Shown here: positions 10,803 to 58,568 of the stretch, one piece after another
Layout of the letters: every line of letters begins with the position of its first letter
Numbering within the stretch: the first letter of the stretch is position 1
Assembly (NCBI GenBank): GCA_046293175.1
Contig: JBKBPM010000002.1
Span: 19,176-83,175, forward strand
Source: Minisyncoccia bacterium
Lineage (GTDB): Bacteria; Patescibacteriota; Minisyncoccia; Phycocordibacterales; UBA918
DNA: 64,000 nucleotides
Direction of reading: 5' to 3'
Position numbers and translations under genes: made by a program
The notes under the pieces: generated by a model
The model's input: only the letters and a program-made list of their open reading frames with translations
Database searches by the model: none
Told to the model about the DNA's origin: nothing

Positions 10803-12266
10803 ATGGACGCGACCATTATCTACCCACACCAACTCTTCCCATTCTGTGACCACACCGCTCTCGCTCCTGGACGTGTCGTATATCTCATTGAAGAACCACT
10901 CATTTTAACTCACAACCCCATTCACCGAGCGAAGCTTGTCCTCCATCGCCTGACTCTCAAAGCCTATGAAAGAGCTCTTTTGCAAGCAGGTTACACCGTC
11001 AACTATATTGAATTACTTAAGTATTCAACTACCGAAGAAATCTTTGCTCGAATTGCCAAAGATGGTGCCAGGACACTCCATATTTGTGATACCACGGATG
11101 ACTACCTTGAACGAGCGATTGATGCTGCATGTGCAACTCTTGGCTTCACCCGCATCTGGTACGAATCACCACTATTCCTTCTGCCAAAGGAAGAAGCTAA
11201 AGAACGGTTTGTAAAAAGCCGCCGGCATATGGCGAACTTCTACAAGAAACTCCGTCAGGATACGGGTATCCTTATGGATGACGGCGAACCACTTGGCGGG
11301 GCGTGGAGTTTTGACAGTGAAAATCGACAGAAGCTCCCAAAGTCAATCACGCTACCAGACGATATTACTCCCTACCCGAGTACACCGGCATATGTAGCGG
11401 CGGTCGCTTGGGTGAAAACCGTACCGGCCGAGCAATACGGCGAGGCCGTGTGGTATCTCCCGATCGACCACCAAGGTGCTGAAACATTTTTACATGATTT
11501 TTTGGTCAAACGATTTGCGCAGTTTGGACCGTATGAGGACGCCATGACGACCGAACACACCCGGCTCTTTCATTCTCTCCTCTCGCCCCTTATGAATATC
11601 GGTCTCCTCACATCTAAGTACGTAGTTGATACAACTCTTGCCTACGCCAAAACACATGAGGTGCCAATCGCTTCACTTGAGGGCTTTATCCGGCAGATTA
11701 TCGGCTGGCGGGAATTTATTCGTGCGAGCTACGAAGTCGATGGACGAGTAATGCGTGGTCGGAACTTTTTTAAGCACAAGCGGAGGCTGCCTGCTACATG
11801 GTGGACTGGCACCACGGGACTCCTGCCACTTGATACCACTATCTCGCGCGTTCTCCAATATGGGTACACACACCATATCGAACGACTGATGGTCGCCGGG
11901 AATCTCATGTTGCTCTCGGGCATTCATCCGCACGAGGCCTACCGGTGGTTTATGGGGATGTACCTTGATGCCTATGATTGGGTGATGGTCCCCAACGTCT
12001 ACGGCATGAGCCAATTTGCCGATGGCGGCAGCTTTGCCACGAAGCCCTACATTAGTGGCGCCCTCTATATAAAGAAGATGAGCAACTACCCAAAAGGTGA
12101 CTGGGAAGCCACCTGGACCGCCCTCTACTGGCACTTTATTGCCACGCACCAAGCGGTCTTTCAAAAAAATCATCGCCTCTCAATGATGCCGAAACTCCTT
12201 AAAAAAATGTCGAAAGACACTTACGACGAACATATGCGTCTTGCCGTGCAATGGTTCTACCACTAA
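10803..12266 (+). CDS. cryptochrome/photolyase-related protein (COG3046 / FeS-BCP-like)
   Basis: About 487 aa from Met MDATIIYPHQLF; C-terminal LDAYDWVMVPNVYGMSQFADGG and YGYTHHIERLM motifs typical of photolyase-related family; the 73-codon upstream ORF extension likely not translated. Confidence 0.65.
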   Translation: MDATIIYPHQLFPFCDHTALAPGRVVYLIEEPLILTHNPIHRAKLVLHRLTLKAYERALLQAGYTVNYIELLKYSTTEEIFARIAKDGARTLHICDTTDDYLERAIDAACATLGFTRIWYESPLFLLPKEEAKERFVKSRRHMANFYKKLRQDTGILMDDGEPLGGAWSFDSENRQKLPKSITLPDDITPYPSTPAYVAAVAWVKTVPAEQYGEAVWYLPIDHQGAETFLHDFLVKRFAQFGPYEDAMTTEHTRLFHSLLSPLMNIGLLTSKYVVDTTLAYAKTHEVPIASLEGFIRQIIGWREFIRASYEVDGRVMRGRNFFKHKRRLPATWWTGTTGLLPLDTTISRVLQYGYTHHIERLMVAGNLMLLSGIHPHEAYRWFMGMYLDAYDWVMVPNVYGMSQFADGGSFATKPYISGALYIKKMSNYPKGDWEATWTALYWHFIATHQAVFQKNHRLSMMPKLLKKMSKDTYDEHMRLAVQWFYH

Positions 12267-15454: not shown

Positions 15455-15922
15455 TTAACGGTTGTCATCCTGACGCTTGGTCAGTTTCATAAATTCAGTC
15501 ATCGTCCGGACCAGCATGTAACCAGTCACAATACCAGTGATACCACAGACGAGATCTCCCAAGGTATCTGACCAAAAATCGGGTTTCAGGCCACCATAGC
15601 GCAAGATACCAAACACCTCCCATCCAATCAGGGCGGCACTAAAACCAATAGCAGAAAGGTATGAAGGGAGTCGCTTCAAAGTCGGTGACATCTGGCGGAG
15701 ACTTGCGAACATAAACATGAGCACAATACCACCAAGGATATGCATGGGCATATCAAGCCATTCGTAGTGCCAGTAGAGGGATAGGGCTTCGGCCAAGGTG
15801 TGTAAAACAGCAAAGGTGACGCCAAAGATAATCGTAACTGCGTAGATCATTATGTATATCGTACCATACAAACTCAGCCTGAAAATCAATTGATACTTCG
15901 TTGCTGTTTCGCAAAATGTCAC
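15455..15922 (-). CDS. hypothetical integral membrane protein
   Basis: 4-5 predicted TM helices; no recognisable motif. Confidence 0.45.
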   Translation of the reverse strand: MTFCETATKYQLIFRLSLYGTIYIMIYAVTIIFGVTFAVLHTLAEALSLYWHYEWLDMPMHILGGIVLMFMFASLRQMSPTLKRLPSYLSAIGFSAALIGWEVFGILRYGGLKPDFWSDTLGDLVCGITGIVTGYMLVRTMTEFMKLTKRQDDNR

Positions 15923-15960
15923 TTACCGTATAAAAAATGACTCGTTCCATCTTACTCACG

Positions 15961-16039
15961 CTTCTTACAGAAGCTGTACACCTTTTGGAAATCAAGGATT
16001 TCTCAAAAGGTCTTGCGGCAGTTCCCCAAACTGCCTCAC
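15961..16039 (+). repeat. intergenic repeat unit copy 1 (TTACAG-N6-TACACC box + variable-stem hairpin + TCAC)
   Basis: cttcttacagaagctgtacaccttttgg...caaaaggtcttgcggcag-ttccccaaa-ctgcctcac; family members at 41.5-41.9 kb and 48.5-48.7 kb. Confidence 0.55.
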
Positions 16040-16368
16040 CTGGTCTGAATTGATTATCAAGCCGAGTTAGACGAAAAAAACGCACTCTGGTGCGATTTTT
16101 TCGTGGGAACGACAGACGCATGCTCCTAGACGAAGTCCAGGTGGGCACCCTTTCCGATTTGTGTCTGAAATTTCTTGCGAATTCTCATTACTCCTCGCGA
16201 CTACAGGCAGCCCTGCGTGTTATATAACCGGAACATACGTGATGTCGTTCCTAGTACAGTATAACAAAAAAATTTTCTCACACCAAAGACTGAAATTCTT
16301 TGGTGTACATATGCATAGAAGAAAAGCGGGTAGATTTCGAGGAAAATATGAGGCACAAGAAAAAAGAC

Positions 16369-16414
16369 CCGAGTGGGATAAATTATCCAGTACGGGTCTT
16401 TTTTCGAAGAGCAA
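16369..16414. terminator. bidirectional terminator downstream of ndk
   Basis: aagacccg...cgggtctt stem with nested ggata/tatcc hairpin, A-run and T-run flanks. Confidence 0.6.
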
Positions 16415-16433
16415 CAAAATAGTTTTCCGAAAT

Positions 16434-17036
16434 CTATTCGCTTTTGCCGTCAAAGTTTACATCGTACATGATGCGTTCCTGTGCTGTCGTGTACTTCATG
16501 ATCTCATCTTCGGTGAACCAAAGAGCAATTTCACGCTCTGCTTCTTCTGGAGATTCTGAACAGTGTATAAGATTTCGTACTGAACGATTTTCGTATGATG
16601 AGTGACTATACGAGTCAACGGTGAAGTCACCACGAATTGTTCCCACATCTGAGGTAGTTGGTTCGGTCGTACCAACCAGTTTTGTCACCACCGCTACTGA
16701 TGCATTTCCTTCCCACACCATCGCCACAACTGGAGCAGCTTTCATGTAGTGCACAATCGTACGAATGATATCCTTTCCGTACTCAATAGCTTCTTTTTCT
16801 ACTGGACGACCTTGCGCCTTAAGGTCTTCAACGATACGAGTGCCCTTCTTGAGGAACCAGGCGTCATCCTTGTTGTAGTGCGCGAGAAGACGAGCTTCAT
16901 CAGCCATAAACATCTTCATGGCGGTGCACTTGAGGCCAGTGCGCTCAAAACGCTTGATAACCTCGCCAATCAGTGAGCGCTGGACGGTGTCGGGCTTTAA
17001 GATAACAAAGGTGCGTTCTTGGTGTGGGTGCTTCAT
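16434..17036 (-). CDS. ndk: nucleoside diphosphate kinase (with C-terminal extension)
   Basis: ERTFVILKPD and NLIHCSES active-site region motifs. Confidence 0.85.
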   Translation of the reverse strand: MKHPHQERTFVILKPDTVQRSLIGEVIKRFERTGLKCTAMKMFMADEARLLAHYNKDDAWFLKKGTRIVEDLKAQGRPVEKEAIEYGKDIIRTIVHYMKAAPVVAMVWEGNASVAVVTKLVGTTEPTTSDVGTIRGDFTVDSYSHSSYENRSVRNLIHCSESPEEAEREIALWFTEDEIMKYTTAQERIMYDVNFDGKSE

Positions 17037-17225: not shown

Positions 17226-17262
17226 TAATAAAAAGAAAAAAGGCCGGGCTTTGCGTCCGGCC
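17226..17262 (-). terminator. rho-independent terminator of map
   Basis: ggccgg-gctttgcgt-ccggcc followed on minus strand by TTTTTTCTTTTT. Confidence 0.5.
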
Positions 17263-17427
17263 AGGTCCAACAGGGAGGATGCCGCGCCATAACCCCGACA
17301 CGACCAGGGGAACCACTACATTCAGTGTATGCCTGTACGTGGCTACTGTCAAAATAAATCTGGGACAAACAGATATACCCCGATCGATTGGAGTATTGTC
17401 AATATGAAATGTGAGGACGTTAACAGA

Positions 17428-34374: not shown

Positions 34375-35049
34375 TTAGCAATCACTACCGCTACCGCGCC
34401 GTGAACACGCTCCGCCATCTGTGGTTGGCTTTGGTGCCGTACAGTTACTATCAGACACAATCGAGCCGTACTGATCACGACATTCTACCGTACGGACATT
34501 TCTTCCGTTGGTTGTGCTACATGAAGGTGGCCACGGCGCGTTACAAGCATAGGCGCCGGTTACCCACCCATAGACCGGGGTTGAACATTCGGCTAATACA
34601 ACGGTGTGATATTGGTACGTACGTCCAACTGAAGCACAGACATTAGCGGCACTTCCAGTCATTGGTCGGATATACGTACTGTTATCATTTCCATCCCCAC
34701 TCCAGTTCCAGTTACAGGTTACGGCCCAAGCTGGTTCAAAGCATTTTCCCCCAACAATAATTGGGTCATCACCTCCACCCCCTCCTGGTGCACCAGTTGA
34801 TGGATCCCAACAGTTGGCGCCGAGTTCGTCACAATAACGTGGGGACCAGGTTGAGGTAGCAGCCGCCACTATATTAGCCATAAAGTTACCGGTCTTTGCT
34901 TGGGTGGTAGCACCAACATTTATTGGCGCAGGAGTATTATCATTTGGTGCAGTGGCGGTGGGTGCAGACCACTGGGCAGACATGAAGTTGTAGCTTACAA
35001 AAAGAAGGGCAACAAGGCTAAAGATGGCTAAGGAGCGATATTGTTTCAT
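34375..35049 (-). CDS. secreted Cys-rich protein, cassette-family paralog A
   Basis: Signal peptide MKQYRSLAIFSLVALLFVS; conserved N-module ...WDPSTGAPGGGGG; 12-Cys variable C-terminus. Confidence 0.55.
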   Translation of the reverse strand: MKQYRSLAIFSLVALLFVSYNFMSAQWSAPTATAPNDNTPAPINVGATTQAKTGNFMANIVAAATSTWSPRYCDELGANCWDPSTGAPGGGGGDDPIIVGGKCFEPAWAVTCNWNWSGDGNDNSTYIRPMTGSAANVCASVGRTYQYHTVVLAECSTPVYGWVTGAYACNAPWPPSCSTTNGRNVRTVECRDQYGSIVSDSNCTAPKPTTDGGACSRRGSGSDC

Positions 35050-35140: not shown

Positions 35141-36001
35141 TTATGAGCAAGACCGAGTACTACCGAAGGTAACTCCAGTTGGCAATACACAACCAAGACT
35201 AAAACCAGACCCAGCACCAGTTGCCCCAGTGGCTGTCCCGTATGAAGCACATGCGCTAAAATCCCAACTAGCTGGCACATTGAATGAATCCCGCCAATTA
35301 CCAGAAAGTGCAACCGAGCAGAATTTCAGGTCCTGGGCTGCGGTTGATCCACCCGAATTACAGGCTGAGGTACTACCAAACGTCACACCAGTATCGGTCA
35401 AACAACCCATTTGTCGTCCTACTGCGCCGGTTGTTGTCTGAAAACTGGCACACTGAGCATCTCCAAAGCTTGCTGGCACGAGAATAGTATCGCGCCAGTT
35501 CCCAGAAGCAGCAACTACTGAACAAAACTTTCGTGATGGCATCGGTTCTGCAACCGCCCCATCACAGGCGGTATCGTCGTTCTCATAAAATTTATCACCA
35601 GCAATGCAGCCAAAAGCATAGCTCGTCGCACCTACAGCAGTCATAAAGCTCTGGCAGGTAGTGCTGGTCCAAGACCCAGGAACTACAATCGTATCGCGCC
35701 AATTACCACTTACGAGTACTGAACAAATCTTGTACACCAAGCCGTTACCGTTAGCAGCGGTACAATTATTCCCGAGAGCATCACAGTAGCGGTTTGAGCG
35801 CATCTCCGTTGTGGCGGCCAAGATATTGGCGGCCAAGTTGCCATTCTTAGCCTGAGTGGTTGTACCAACATTTATTGGCGCAGGAGTATTATCATTTGGT
35901 GCAGTGGCGGTGGGTGCAGACCACTGGGCAGACATGAAGTTGTAGCTTACAAAAAGAAGGGCAACAAGGCTAAAGATGGCTAAGGAGCGATATTGTTTCA
36001 T
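35141..36001 (-). CDS. secreted Cys-rich protein, cassette-family paralog B (three internal about 68-aa 4-Cys repeats)
   Basis: First about 47 codons and 13 nt of 5'UTR identical at DNA level to paralog A; repeats SGNWRDxIxVPxS...GVTFGSTSxC. Confidence 0.55.
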   Translation of the reverse strand: MKQYRSLAIFSLVALLFVSYNFMSAQWSAPTATAPNDNTPAPINVGTTTQAKNGNLAANILAATTEMRSNRYCDALGNNCTAANGNGLVYKICSVLVSGNWRDTIVVPGSWTSTTCQSFMTAVGATSYAFGCIAGDKFYENDDTACDGAVAEPMPSRKFCSVVAASGNWRDTILVPASFGDAQCASFQTTTGAVGRQMGCLTDTGVTFGSTSACNSGGSTAAQDLKFCSVALSGNWRDSFNVPASWDFSACASYGTATGATGAGSGFSLGCVLPTGVTFGSTRSCS

Positions 36002-36105
36002 ATAGGAGTATTATGACAGAAAAAGCAGTAGCACGTTGTTGTTATACACAAAAACGCCTGAGAGGCGCTTTTGTACAACATTTGAGACGATTCCTGGACG
36101 TATGC

Positions 36106-37381: not shown

Positions 37382-37973
37382 TTATGGTGCGCGCAATTCA
37401 CGGACTACATAGTGACCATTACCAGAATTAGTGGTCAGGGTACCAAATCTATAATAATGTCCTGGCGAAATAATAATGGTTGAACCGTTATCAAGATCAC
37501 TGTCATAGTCTTGGTAGTTCATTCTCACTGAGGTGGTAGTTGAAACACCCACATCGATAATCGTACCGTCCCAAATATTCTTATGGAAAACCATAATTGG
37601 CTGATCAGTATTATTTTGGTACCAAACACCCTGGGTACGGTTAACCACTTGCCACGTTTGATTATAACCAATACCACCCCCCGCCCGGCGCGCCAGTACT
37701 TGGATCCCAACAATTATTCCCGGTCTCATCGCAGTACTGTGGAGACCAGGCGGAGGTAGCGGCCGCCACTATATTAGCCATAAAGTTACCGGTTTTGGCT
37801 TGGGTGGTAGCACCAACATTTATTGGCGTAGGAGTATTATCATTTGGTGCAGTGGCGGTGGGTGCAGACCACTGGGCAGACATGAAGTTGTAGCCGGTAA
37901 GAAGGCTTGGGCAGATAACTAACGGGATAAAAGCAAGGGTTTCTTCATATGTAGTCATTCTATTAAGAGACAC
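37382..37973 (-). pseudogene. cassette-family paralog C; reading frame broken at a C6-G-C3 homopolymer (37677-37686); N-terminal signal region replaced
   Basis: ORFs 37662..37973 and 37382..37729 overlap; DNA 37762-37896 about 98% identical to paralog A 34862-34996. Confidence 0.45.
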
Positions 37974-38046
37974 TGCTGCGTAGAAGAGATGCTGGGTATA
38001 ACAAAAGCGCCTTTTAGGCGCTTTTGTTATACATGTGCCATGCTCC

Positions 38047-41533: not shown

Positions 41534-41562
41534 TTAGATCCTTCTTCTTACAGAAACTATAT
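41534..41562 (+). repeat. intergenic repeat family, truncated copy 2a (box only)
   Basis: cttcttacagaaactatataccatttggg. Confidence 0.4.
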
Positions 41563-41581
41563 ACCATTTGGGCATTTCATT

Positions 41582-41674
41582 TCTTTACCCTTTTACAGAC
41601 ACTATACACCTTGTCGCTACTTTATTTCGTTTCACTCATAAAGTACCTGGCAAGGTCTTGCTAAAGTGACCCGC
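41582..41674 (+). repeat. intergenic repeat family copy 2b (type A)
   Basis: tttacagacactatacaccttgtcgctactttatttcg...ctggcaaggtcttgctaaagtg-acccg-cactttctcac. Confidence 0.55.
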
Positions 41675-41840
41675 ACTTTCTCACTCATAGAATTCCTCAA
41701 ATGGTCTTGCAGAATATGAACGGATTAATAAAAAGGCTCTCTCTGGAGCGCCTTTTCTTATGCCTCTTCTACAATATCCTTCAAGGTCAAGTCATTAAAT
41801 ATATTTCTTACTTGGTTCAAAATCTTCTCAGTGCTTCCCG

Positions 41841-41936
41841 CTTACAGCGGCAGTACACCTTTTGGATATCTTGTTTCGTTTCACTTACAAATTATCACAA
41901 AAAGTCGTGCGAAATGGGGTCCCATTCCATTTCTCA
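41841..41936 (+). repeat. intergenic repeat family copy 2c (type B)
   Basis: cttacagcggcagtacaccttttggatatcttgtttcgtttcac...caaaaagtcgtgcgaaatgg-ggtcccatt-ccatttctcac. Confidence 0.55.
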
Positions 41937-42056
41937 CCCCCCGCCTCGCTGATTCGGCGCCTGTAGAGTCGCCCTACTTCGTTCCGGCTCGTCAAAGATA
42001 TAGTGGGAAGACATATATAAAGAGAGCACCCTCGTCGGGTGCTCTCTTTATTATTA

Positions 42057-48382: not shown

Positions 48383-48482
48383 GCACTATCTTTAGAATTA
48401 CTCGGGTAGTATACCAGATTGTTTTGGAGTAACGACATGTTATTTCAATTCCAAGAATGCGTTCAAAAAGCATTCAGACAAG

Positions 48483-48574
48483 TGAGAAAGCGCGGGGCGC
48501 TTTCGTAAAACCTTTTGCGATAGTTTGTGAGTATAACAAAACAAACTAGCCAAAAGGTGTACTGTTCCTGTAAG
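48483..48574 (-). repeat. intergenic repeat family copy 3b (type B, inverted orientation)
   Basis: Reverse complement reads cttacaggaacagtacaccttttggctagtttgttttg...caaaaggttttacgaaagcgc-cccg-gcgctttctcac. Confidence 0.55.
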
Positions 48575-48602
48575 GAAGCGCAAACGGGGCGTATATAGAC
48601 AC

Positions 48603-48684
48603 TTCTTACAGAAGCTGTACAGGTTGTCGCTATTTTTTCATAATAGCTGGCAACCTCTTGCGAAAGTCTCCCAGACTTTCTCAC
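48603..48684 (+). repeat. intergenic repeat family copy 3a (type A), head-to-head with 3b
   Basis: cttcttacagaagctgtacaggttgtcgctattttttcataatagctggcaacctcttgcgaaagtct-ccc-agactttctcac. Confidence 0.55.
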
Positions 48685-48738
48685 GATGAGTGTTTCTGAG
48701 TGTAGCGCAACAAATTCTGAGAGATTTTTGGACGCGTT

Positions 48739-58415: not shown

Positions 58416-58455
58416 GCGCTATATCCAAAAATGCCAGCTATTTTGTTGGACTACG

Positions 58456-58502
58456 AAAAATGACCCTCGCTGGACAAGCTCGTCCCACTTGGGTCATTTT
58501 CT
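58456..58502. terminator. compound-hairpin terminator after rpmB
   Basis: aaatgaccc...gggtcattt with nested hairpin, TTTTCTTG tail. Confidence 0.55.
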
Positions 58503-58568
58503 TGTCCGCCTAGTATCTGTCTGATTTATTGAATAAAGCTTGTGGCTCCGAGTTGAATCTATTGAACA

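Follow-up and report, generated by a model that had tools for sequence, protein, structure and literature searches.

A probable small RNA gene and a later repeat insertion in the spacer downstream of ndk in a Patescibacteria genome

Among the structured RNAs of bacteria, the raiA motif RNA and OLE RNA are lineage-restricted 'orphans' whose function is unknown. The Patescibacteria (candidate phyla radiation) comprise a large share of bacterial diversity, and to our knowledge their non-coding RNAs are almost entirely uncharacterized; in the literature searched we found no report tying 6S RNA or a lineage-specific structured RNA to this group. 6S RNA is laid out as a rod in which a closing stem leads to a central bubble, composed of an open 5' strand and a 3' hairpin, and from there to an apical stem, and in the Bacillus-type 6S-1 RNA the 3' hairpin is pre-formed (PMC8876501). 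Here we analyze the 510-bp spacer that follows ndk in a 64,000-nucleotide stretch of DNA, referred to below as the window, from a Minisyncoccia bacterium (assembly GCA_046293175.1, contig JBKBPM010000002.1, positions 19,176 to 83,175), and compare with these systems two elements that it holds, namely a conserved block with the features of a small RNA gene and one copy of an interspersed repeat.

On the minus strand of the window the order is map, ndk (17036-16434), the 510-bp spacer, the gene for a 131-aa membrane protein (15850-15455) and the gene for a beta-CASP metallo-beta-lactamase RNase. Four components with no relation to each other make up the spacer, and read on this strand they are the ndk stop, two tandem ndk terminators, the small RNA gene and the inserted repeat; after them comes the promoter of the next gene. 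Taken as a whole, this is the best explanation of the locus, a composite spacer containing a small RNA gene with its own promoter and terminator and a repeat that was inserted later, and we assign it a probability of about 0.8. The RNA gene itself is delimited by the following features.

16102-16254, minus strand: conserved structured small RNA, body ~16251->16106 (covariance model R1, 184.8 bits)
16258-16266, minus strand: putative extended -10 promoter (TGTTATACT), separated from helix P1 downstream by 6 nt (read from the sequence)
16070-16105, minus strand: predicted intrinsic terminator of the small RNA, CGCAC-CAGA-GUGCG followed by U7 (terminator scan; inverted repeat 16071-16104)

The loci of relatives were fetched through their ndk homologues and are labelled L001, L002, L004 and so on; the L001 contig is identical to the window in the spacer and thus uninformative for comparison. 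The relatives' spacers range from 290 to 1400 nt and vary in content, and one block is near-identical in all of them. On the ndk-sense strand this block reads AGGAACGACAUCACGUAUGUUCC...GGAGCAUGCGUCUGUCGUUCCCAC and corresponds to window positions 16254->16102; it occurs in identical or near-identical form 3' of ndk in L002, L004, L006 and L008, with a different terminator in each. Repeat copy 1, the stretch 16263-16368 and the hairpin at 16359-16405 are not common to the relatives' spacers, the exception being a terminator module, described below, that is also present in L006. Positions 16263-16433 are missing or replaced in relatives, and the conserved part is 16102-16254 only.

Model R1, a covariance model built from five sequences, yields exactly one full-length match per locus in 12 of 12 relatives' loci (100-187 bits) as well as one in every one of the 29 GTDB species genomes that the pattern AGGGYTGCCTGN{40,70}AAAGGGTRCCCAC retrieved, all of which are Patescibacteria or likely mis-binned. 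It yields no match in 554 kb of unrelated metagenome contigs and zero matches in IMG/VR viral contigs. In each of the 12 loci from relatives, the RNA is located between ndk and the gene for the beta-CASP RNase; in 25 of 27 GTDB loci it is upstream of and co-oriented with the membrane protein gene, the RNase gene or both. The adk-map-ndk-RNA synteny persists down to 63% ndk identity, and the RNA is still found beside ndk where the membrane protein gene is missing (L013/L016, L030) and in L022, whose downstream genes are entirely different. The gene is single-copy and syntenic, with compensatory changes, across a broad range of Paceibacteria/Kaiserbacteria-like Patescibacteria, and it forms a unit separate from its neighbors. 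Two loci with other taxonomic labels, L035 (Thermoplasmatota archaeon) and L039 (Acidimicrobiales), hold a complete Patescibacteria ndk-RNA-membrane-RNase block, probably as a result of binning contamination of public metagenome-assembled genomes (MAGs).

At the base of the RNA stands helix P1, in which 16251-16243 pairs with 16114-16106 over 9 bp (GGAACGACA / TGTCGTTCC on the plus strand), the two arms being 128 nt apart. This is the 9-bp long-range pairing (16106-16114 / 16243-16251) that had been noticed in an earlier reading of the DNA, referred to here as the original prediction, and the other inverted repeats listed there are likewise all present in their places. The pairing is not significant alone: about 0.5 perfect 9-bp inverted repeats are expected by chance in 511 nt (~130,000 position pairs x 4^-9), and the spacer also has several chance-grade 8-10-nt inverted pairs. 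The original prediction had named a lack of conservation in relatives as one outcome that would refute it. The pairing is in fact conserved and covaries, one position, for instance, being a C-G pair in 16 sequences and a G-C pair in 12, and because of this conservation and covariation we accept it as real.

Together with the 10-bp helix P1b, from which it is separated by a small internal loop, P1 makes up a closing stem of 19 bp. The inner closing helix (ACGUAUGUUC / GAGCAUGCGU) is almost invariant and retains two U·G pairs; the outer helix freely covaries. The central region that follows consists of an open 5' strand of 17-21 nt, 66% A+U, and a 3' strand that forms a covarying hairpin of 6-7 bp. 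Beyond it extends an apical arm of ~23 bp, broken by conserved bulges and internal loops (apical helices 5-8) and near-invariant in sequence (AGGGYUGCCUG-AGUC / GAAAGGGURCCCACCU). Across 33 distinct sequences, 95.3% of the cells are standard pairs and both sides have changed in 36 of the 53 pairs; none of 500 shuffles is as good (0/500), and slid partners pair at 30-49%. This 33-sequence alignment was fitted to the R1 model, and therefore 32 sequences were realigned afresh using MAFFT and folded using RNAalifold. The independent fold recovers the same helices, with no pairing in the 5' junction strand. The first model had two further helices, 3 and 4, that paired bases within this strand; they are weak (76-79% paired) and absent from the independent fold, and were dropped.

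The original prediction had left the strand unspecified. The alignment contains 208 G·U cells against 11 A·C cells, and this excess leads us to read the RNA on the window's minus strand, in the same sense as ndk. Once delimited, the RNA folds on the minus strand into the consensus structure with a minimum free energy of -56.6 kcal/mol (z = -4.1), compared to -45.4 kcal/mol (z = -2.5) on the plus strand, and a conserved TGnTAnaAT element lies upstream on the minus strand; wobble counts and fold z-scores rule out the plus strand as the RNA strand. Folding of the whole spacer gives z = -2.4 (plus) and -4.5 (minus), with neither fold using the proposed 9-bp pairing, and the minimum-free-energy structure agreed with the covariation fold only once the RNA was delimited by homology.

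The motifs on either side of the block are those of a transcription unit of its own. In all 33 of the distinct homologues a TAnnnT element precedes P1 by 4-10 nt; by eye it is TGn-extended in ~30 of 34, and in the homologous spacers of relatives the block is always preceded by TGnTATAMT. At the opposite end, 16070-16105 reads CGCACCAGAGTGCG plus TTTTTTT on the minus strand, as is characteristic of an intrinsic terminator; the hairpin at 16081-16094 is symmetric and scores as a terminator on both strands. A hairpin with a T-run follows P1 in 28 of the 33 homologues, as well as in the window by the scanner's criteria, and the stems are unrelated in sequence. It is well supported by these motifs that the RNA would be the product of an independent gene whose promoter and terminator have been kept in position, the terminator not in sequence. 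The extended -10 promoter (TGTTATACT, 16266-16258) would drive a transcript of ~150 nt (16251->16106) ending at the intrinsic terminator 16105->16070, which would bring the primary transcript to ~185 nt (~16252 to ~16072). The independent structured transcript of the original prediction thus finds good support, at a body of ~150 nt, or ~185 nt with terminator, instead of ~250 nt. Of the two terminator-like hairpins thought to flank it, both of which are present (16071-16104 and 16359-16405), only the left one belongs to the RNA. In L036 and L040 the usual terminator after P1 is missing, and the two loci have in common an alternative downstream sequence, AAAATATGTTTCTAAATTTCCGTAATCC...

No family of Rfam 15 matches the RNA body, either at the gathering threshold or at E<=10, when the window and five diverse homologues are compared, and the RNA family appears to be undescribed. 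Apart from noise of the terminator type, the comparison yielded one sub-threshold match, to malK-I RNA, over the repeat (see below). Given the conservation, the covariation and the flanking motifs, an independent, conserved, structured small RNA that acts in trans is very probably what this locus encodes, and we infer that it is a stable, protein-binding housekeeping RNA. By analogy of layout, our best specific guess, and a tentative one, is a 6S-type RNA, which would imitate an open promoter and be bound by RNA polymerase; we regard this assignment as possible but rather unlikely. Like 6S RNA (RF00013; Bacillus subtilis 6S-1, Aquifex 6S), it is a stand-alone gene in the 150-200-nt range (~150 nt body, ~185 nt with terminator), and its 5' and 3' ends pair to give a long closing stem (P1 and P1b, 19 bp) interrupted by a small internal loop. 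It shares with 6S RNA the open 5' strand (17-21 unpaired nt), the stable small 3' hairpin, the long apical stem with bulges and loops (helices 5-8) and a variable cap loop, and the G-C pairs that flank the central region. Were it a 6S RNA, the inner closing helix (ACGUAUGUUC / GAGCAUGCGU) would be the region that is unwound and copied; the near-invariance of this helix next to a freely covarying outer helix is what one might expect of a helix that is melted and copied. Product RNAs would then be complementary to ...ACGUAUGUUCC... and begin opposite ...GUUCC (5'-GGAACAUACGU...).

Several points weigh against these interpretations. The 6S models (RF00013 and related ones) find no match even at E<=10 in the window region and the five homologues; sequence conservation in the apical arm far exceeds what 6S RNAs usually show; the body, at ~150 nt, is at the short end; and pairing of the 5' junction strand with the released 3' strand, as in bubble collapse, has duplex energies no better than those of shuffles (mean z = -0.49, with 6 of 32 sequences below -1). 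The 6S likeness is a resemblance, not membership. As for the RNA gene in general, we infer its transcription, its ends and its abundance from promoter and terminator motifs only, the Rfam comparison covers the window and five homologues, and the invariance of helix 5 is partly imposed by the retrieval pattern.

Should the 6S guess fail, the default is that the RNA is structured and acts in trans but serves another function, for instance as a protein scaffold or sponge, possibly for the beta-CASP RNase, or as a ligand-sensing small RNA. To this main alternative we would give a little under even odds: all of the evidence for an independent conserved gene applies to it, the invariant loops of the apical arm suggest a specific partner, and both the missing 6S model match and the missing collapse-helix signal point the same way. 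Nothing specific speaks against it, but the overall layout fits 6S RNA better than a compact multi-helix junction. A housekeeping RNA would also be expected to be single-copy, very conserved and equipped with its own promoter and terminator, and it might be asked if Rfam models have missed a highly divergent signal recognition particle (SRP)/4.5S RNA, RNase P RNA, tmRNA or Y-like RNA. This is very improbable, since six homologues contain no sub-threshold match to these families at E<=10, ARAGORN finds no tmRNA, and the consensus, read against textbook features, has no GNRA-capped helix-8-like hairpin, T-loop or acceptor-like end; neither the Rfam models nor ARAGORN place it with SRP RNA, RNase P RNA or tmRNA. 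Somewhat less remote, and still improbable, is a cis-acting leader, in which a riboswitch-like aptamer and a terminator control read-through into the membrane-protein and beta-CASP RNase genes. Like such leaders, the locus presents a structured core and then a hairpin with a U-run upstream of co-oriented genes (25 of 27 GTDB loci, the terminator following in 28 of 33 homologues), and its many invariant internal-loop nucleotides are reminiscent of ligand pockets. Unlike them, it has a 19-bp closing stem no part of which pairs alternatively with the relatives' differing terminators, and the downstream gene possesses a conserved extended -10 element of its own, at a distance of 6-8 nt from the ATG. 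Moreover, 75-550 nt of unrelated DNA, including the repeat in the window, is tolerated before the next gene, and L022 keeps the RNA by ndk despite different downstream genes. Neither a 5' untranslated location nor a competing expression platform was found.

The ~250-nt transcript between the outer hairpins (~16105 to 16414), on an unspecified or the plus strand and with the 16280-16306 hairpin included, could in principle end at either hairpin, as both are symmetric and might terminate either strand, and 16106-16368 folds somewhat better on the plus strand than its shuffles do (z = -2.4). It is nonetheless most unlikely: conservation is limited to 16102-16254, the wobble pairs suit the minus strand only, and the region has no conserved plus-strand promoter and a minus-strand promoter that separates its two parts. 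The view that the structure is due to chance, or to the coding signal of a small open reading frame, draws on the chance-level frequency of a 9-bp inverted repeat and on the short reading frames that overlap the region. Its probability is close to nil, as it is effectively refuted by the covariation and the independent fold: compensatory substitutions are found in 36 pairs, loop lengths differ by 1, 4, 6 and 11 nt, which is incompatible with a conserved frame, and no reading frame is common to the relatives. The one at 16161..16559, already judged spurious in the original prediction, is antisense to the RNA and cannot be conserved, because only 60-300 nt separate ndk and the RNA in relatives.

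The small RNA gene, as we prefer to read it, is bordered by the following features of its neighbors.

16434-17036, minus strand: ndk coding sequence, 200 aa, PF00334 (open reading frame list)
16355-16433, minus strand: first ndk terminator, hairpin GACCCG...CGGGTC (16366-16398) plus a minus-strand U-run (inverted repeat 16359-16405)
16266-16306, minus strand: second ndk terminator-like hairpin, ACACCAAAG / CUUUGGUGU then GAGAAAAUUUUUUU (inverted repeat 16280-16306)
15848-15866, minus strand: promoter-like TGGTACGAT with a spacing of 7 nt to the ATG of the gene for the 131-aa membrane protein, coding sequence 15455-15850 (read from the sequence)

The ndk protein is an exact match to the nucleoside-diphosphate kinase of a Candidatus Paceibacteria MAG. 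Downstream of it, the hairpin at ~16280-16306 is present as had been described, with 10 bp instead of 9 (ACACCAAAGA at 16280-16289 / TCTTTGGTGT at 16297-16306), and appears to be an ndk terminator, not part of the RNA: it aligns with the ndk terminators (..CCTTTGG..CTTTTTG) located just before the RNA promoter in L004, L006, L008 and L002. Both right-hand hairpins (16280-16306 and 16359-16405) are upstream of the RNA promoter and would terminate ndk. The first of the two terminators sits inside a terminator-bearing module of ~55-75 nt (CTATTTTGTTG..CGAAAAAAGACCC..CTGGA..TCCCACTYGGGTC TTTTTCTTGT), which we observed at window positions 16355-16433 (-) and 58430-58505 (+) and at L006 10630-10681. 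The L006 copy, 3' of ndk, is 90% identical over 52 nt. Located 3' of different genes, the module seems to behave like a terminator cassette that is mobile or has been copied.

The 131-aa membrane protein gene is also called in L001 and in relatives, most of which (L004, L006, L008, L010, L011, L017 and others) contain TGnTAnnAT 6-8 nt before its ATG. This suggests that the mRNA may be leaderless and start from an extended -10 promoter, the same promoter type as that used by the small RNA. L013, a Kaiserbacteria locus without the membrane protein gene, has a long imperfect inverted repeat (ccatccccaattaacgcttggacat ... atgtccaatggttaattggagatgg) at 10855-11025, between the RNA and the RNase gene.

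Upstream of ndk, the map-ndk spacer contains a 75-nt match to Rfam SorX (RF02784) at window positions 17236-17310 (-), with 61.7 bits versus a gathering threshold of 46.6 and E = 1e-12. SorX is an alphaproteobacterial small RNA, and the match in a Patescibacteria genome is odd. The element comprises a hairpin, the motif CCUCCCUGUUGGACC and a terminator, has 65% G+C versus 48% G+C for the genome, and is kept in the map-ndk spacer of close relatives (L005, 93% over 100 nt; L008/L009, 97% over 73 nt; L011). Elsewhere in the window we observed a separate family of 217-nt direct repeats in three copies (34778-34994, 35730-35946 and 37678-37894; 69-88% identity) and paired terminator-like palindromes at 36048-36074 and 38001-38027.

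The second element of the spacer, repeat copy 1, had been recognized in the original prediction and is indeed one of five full copies in 64 kb.

15959-16040: repeat copy 1, three-hairpin interspersed element (model R2, 81.5 bits)
41587-41685: repeat copy 2b, with a partial copy at 41547-41592 before it and a fragment after it (R2, 69.6 bits)
41836-41938: repeat copy 3 (R2, 84.8 bits)
48481-48579: repeat copy 5, in inverted orientation (R2, 86.8 bits)
48600-48685: repeat copy 4 (R2, 77.3 bits)

Each copy is built from hairpin H1 (N5-UUACA-N5'), hairpin H2 (CCUUUUG...CAAAAGG, with a variable tip), hairpin H3, whose loop contains CCC, and the end CUCAC. The H1 stems around the constant UUACA loop include CTTCT/AGAAG, CCGCT/AGCGG and TTCCT/AGGAA, and compensatory changes distinguish the copies in all three hairpins. 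Copy 1 has the internal hairpins TTTTGGAAATC / GATTTCTCAAA (15983-16007) and TGCGGCAGTT / AACTGCCTCA (16014-16038). The 'extra internal hairpin' once ascribed to this copy exists but is not extra; it is the shortest variable tip of H2, which is common to every copy. Copies 4 and 5 (48481-48685) are arranged head-to-head, 20 nt apart. At the copy-2 locus (41547-41730) a full repeat is accompanied by a 5' partial copy and an additional 3' fragment (CAAATGGTCTTGCAG near 41700), a pile-up that suggests repeated insertion or decay at one site.

All relatives are without the repeat at the orthologous spacer site, and copy 1 is therefore a lineage-specific insertion. It had originally been listed alongside the structured domain; it is no part of the RNA, and was inserted later between the RNA terminator and the promoter of the next gene. 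The orientation of the repeat relative to flanking genes is only 60:40, and the wobble evidence conflicts between strands. We found no conserved promoter upstream of the repeat's CTTACAG end, where the information content is ~0; the other end was inspected by eye only. Several earlier readings of the repeat were discarded. A first hairpin drawn as TACAG-aag-CTGTA has been replaced by the covarying N5-UUACA-N5'. The idea of an IS200/IS605 element with a TTAC target was dropped, since the bases flanking TTAC pair together as part of the element. Finally, the repeat had been read as an anticodon loop or tRNA, and ARAGORN finds no tRNA at any copy.

The repeat family was then followed in metagenomes by means of a scan with its 5' motif, which gave at least 120 contigs. 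Among the matches listed, nearly all have the whole, unforced architecture, and of 133 copies, 45 have a co-oriented tRNA gene within the 400 nt upstream of them, versus 2 in the opposite orientation. A few relatives that bear the small RNA, including L040, have repeat copies elsewhere. The last ~18-20 nt of the tRNA, starting in the T-loop, are repeated in direct orientation at a constant spacing after at least 16-18 of the tRNA-linked copies, and the tRNAs involved are those for Gly, His, Ile, Ser, Leu, Asp, Trp, Glu, Ala and Pro. The order at these sites is tRNA, terminator, element and direct copy of the tRNA 3' end, with units sometimes in tandem, as in L160 (4594-5040), where tRNA-Gly is followed by two tandem 185-bp units that each end in ttcgattcctctcacccgca; tRNA-linked examples are also present in L159, L130, L127, L124, L100, L093, L083, L061, L048 and L047. 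Within the element body, moreover, the end of the linked tRNA recurs as an inverted copy that H3 interrupts, the complementarity of an element to its own tRNA having a median of 8 nt versus 5 nt to other tRNAs.

As judged from this arrangement, the tRNA-linked copies would be the traces that a tiny element without genes leaves when it inserts site-specifically at tRNA genes, and the repeat may do so in the form of a folded single strand resembling the acceptor/T-arm of the tRNA targeted. The arrangement typical of integrative elements, in which an intact tRNA gene adjoins a direct repeat of its 3' end, is found for 16-18 metagenomic copies and not for window copy 1. None of the window's five copies is near any tRNA, and ARAGORN detects no tRNA gene within the 64-kb window. 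IMG/VR viral contigs contain zero matches to the repeat.

A single-copy RNA that stays near-invariant while ndk diverges to 63% identity likely has a central role in these minimal cells. Should this be the 6S RNA of the group, a gap in the core RNA inventory is filled and the known range of 6S architecture is extended; if not, it represents a new RNA class with a specific, so far unnamed partner. The repeat, in turn, is a concrete example, defined at the sequence level, on which the targeting of tRNA genes by tiny gene-less elements can be studied. Both elements may conceivably be new at once, a joint proposal that we put forward as speculative and doubtful: the RNA would be an unrecognized housekeeping class specific to Paceibacteria/Kaiserbacteria-like Patescibacteria, neither 6S nor catalogued, and the repeat a new gene-less element of ~100-190 bp that copies tRNA 3' ends in direct and inverted orientation. 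As a new class, the RNA would use its invariant apical arm to bind a partner used by no known bacterial small RNA.

Set beside the orphan RNAs, the raiA motif and OLE among them, the RNA is alike in being confined to one bacterial lineage, in its strong covariation, its many invariant nucleotides and its own transcription unit, and in a function that cannot be deduced from its neighbors; it differs in that none of them gives an Rfam 15 match to it and in being much smaller than OLE. A weak minus-strand alignment to malK-I RNA (RF03069) spans 15945-16108, over the repeat and the terminator, with 26.9 bits and E = 0.007. Membership in that family was rejected, the score being far below the gathering threshold of 60.3 and owing much to the terminator stem.

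The repeat is multi-copy, short, non-coding and intergenic with conserved hairpins, in the manner of MITEs and REP-like sequences. With the REP/BIME, Correia/NEMIS and RUP/BOX-type repeats and MITEs it shares a length of 80-105 nt, a frequent tandem or head-to-head arrangement and hairpins preserved by compensatory changes between copies. It is set apart from them by its three hairpins, its conserved UUACA loop and the absence of terminal inverted repeats and target-site duplications, none of which were seen at the five window copies. With tRNA-gene integrative elements, CIMEs and folded att sites, such as integron attC and CTX phage attP, the family has in common the direct copy of the tRNA 3' end and an inverted copy of that end within the element, which could fold back on it. 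It differs from these mobile systems in that its units are gene-less and only ~150-190 bp long, and in that one core is found at many tRNAs.

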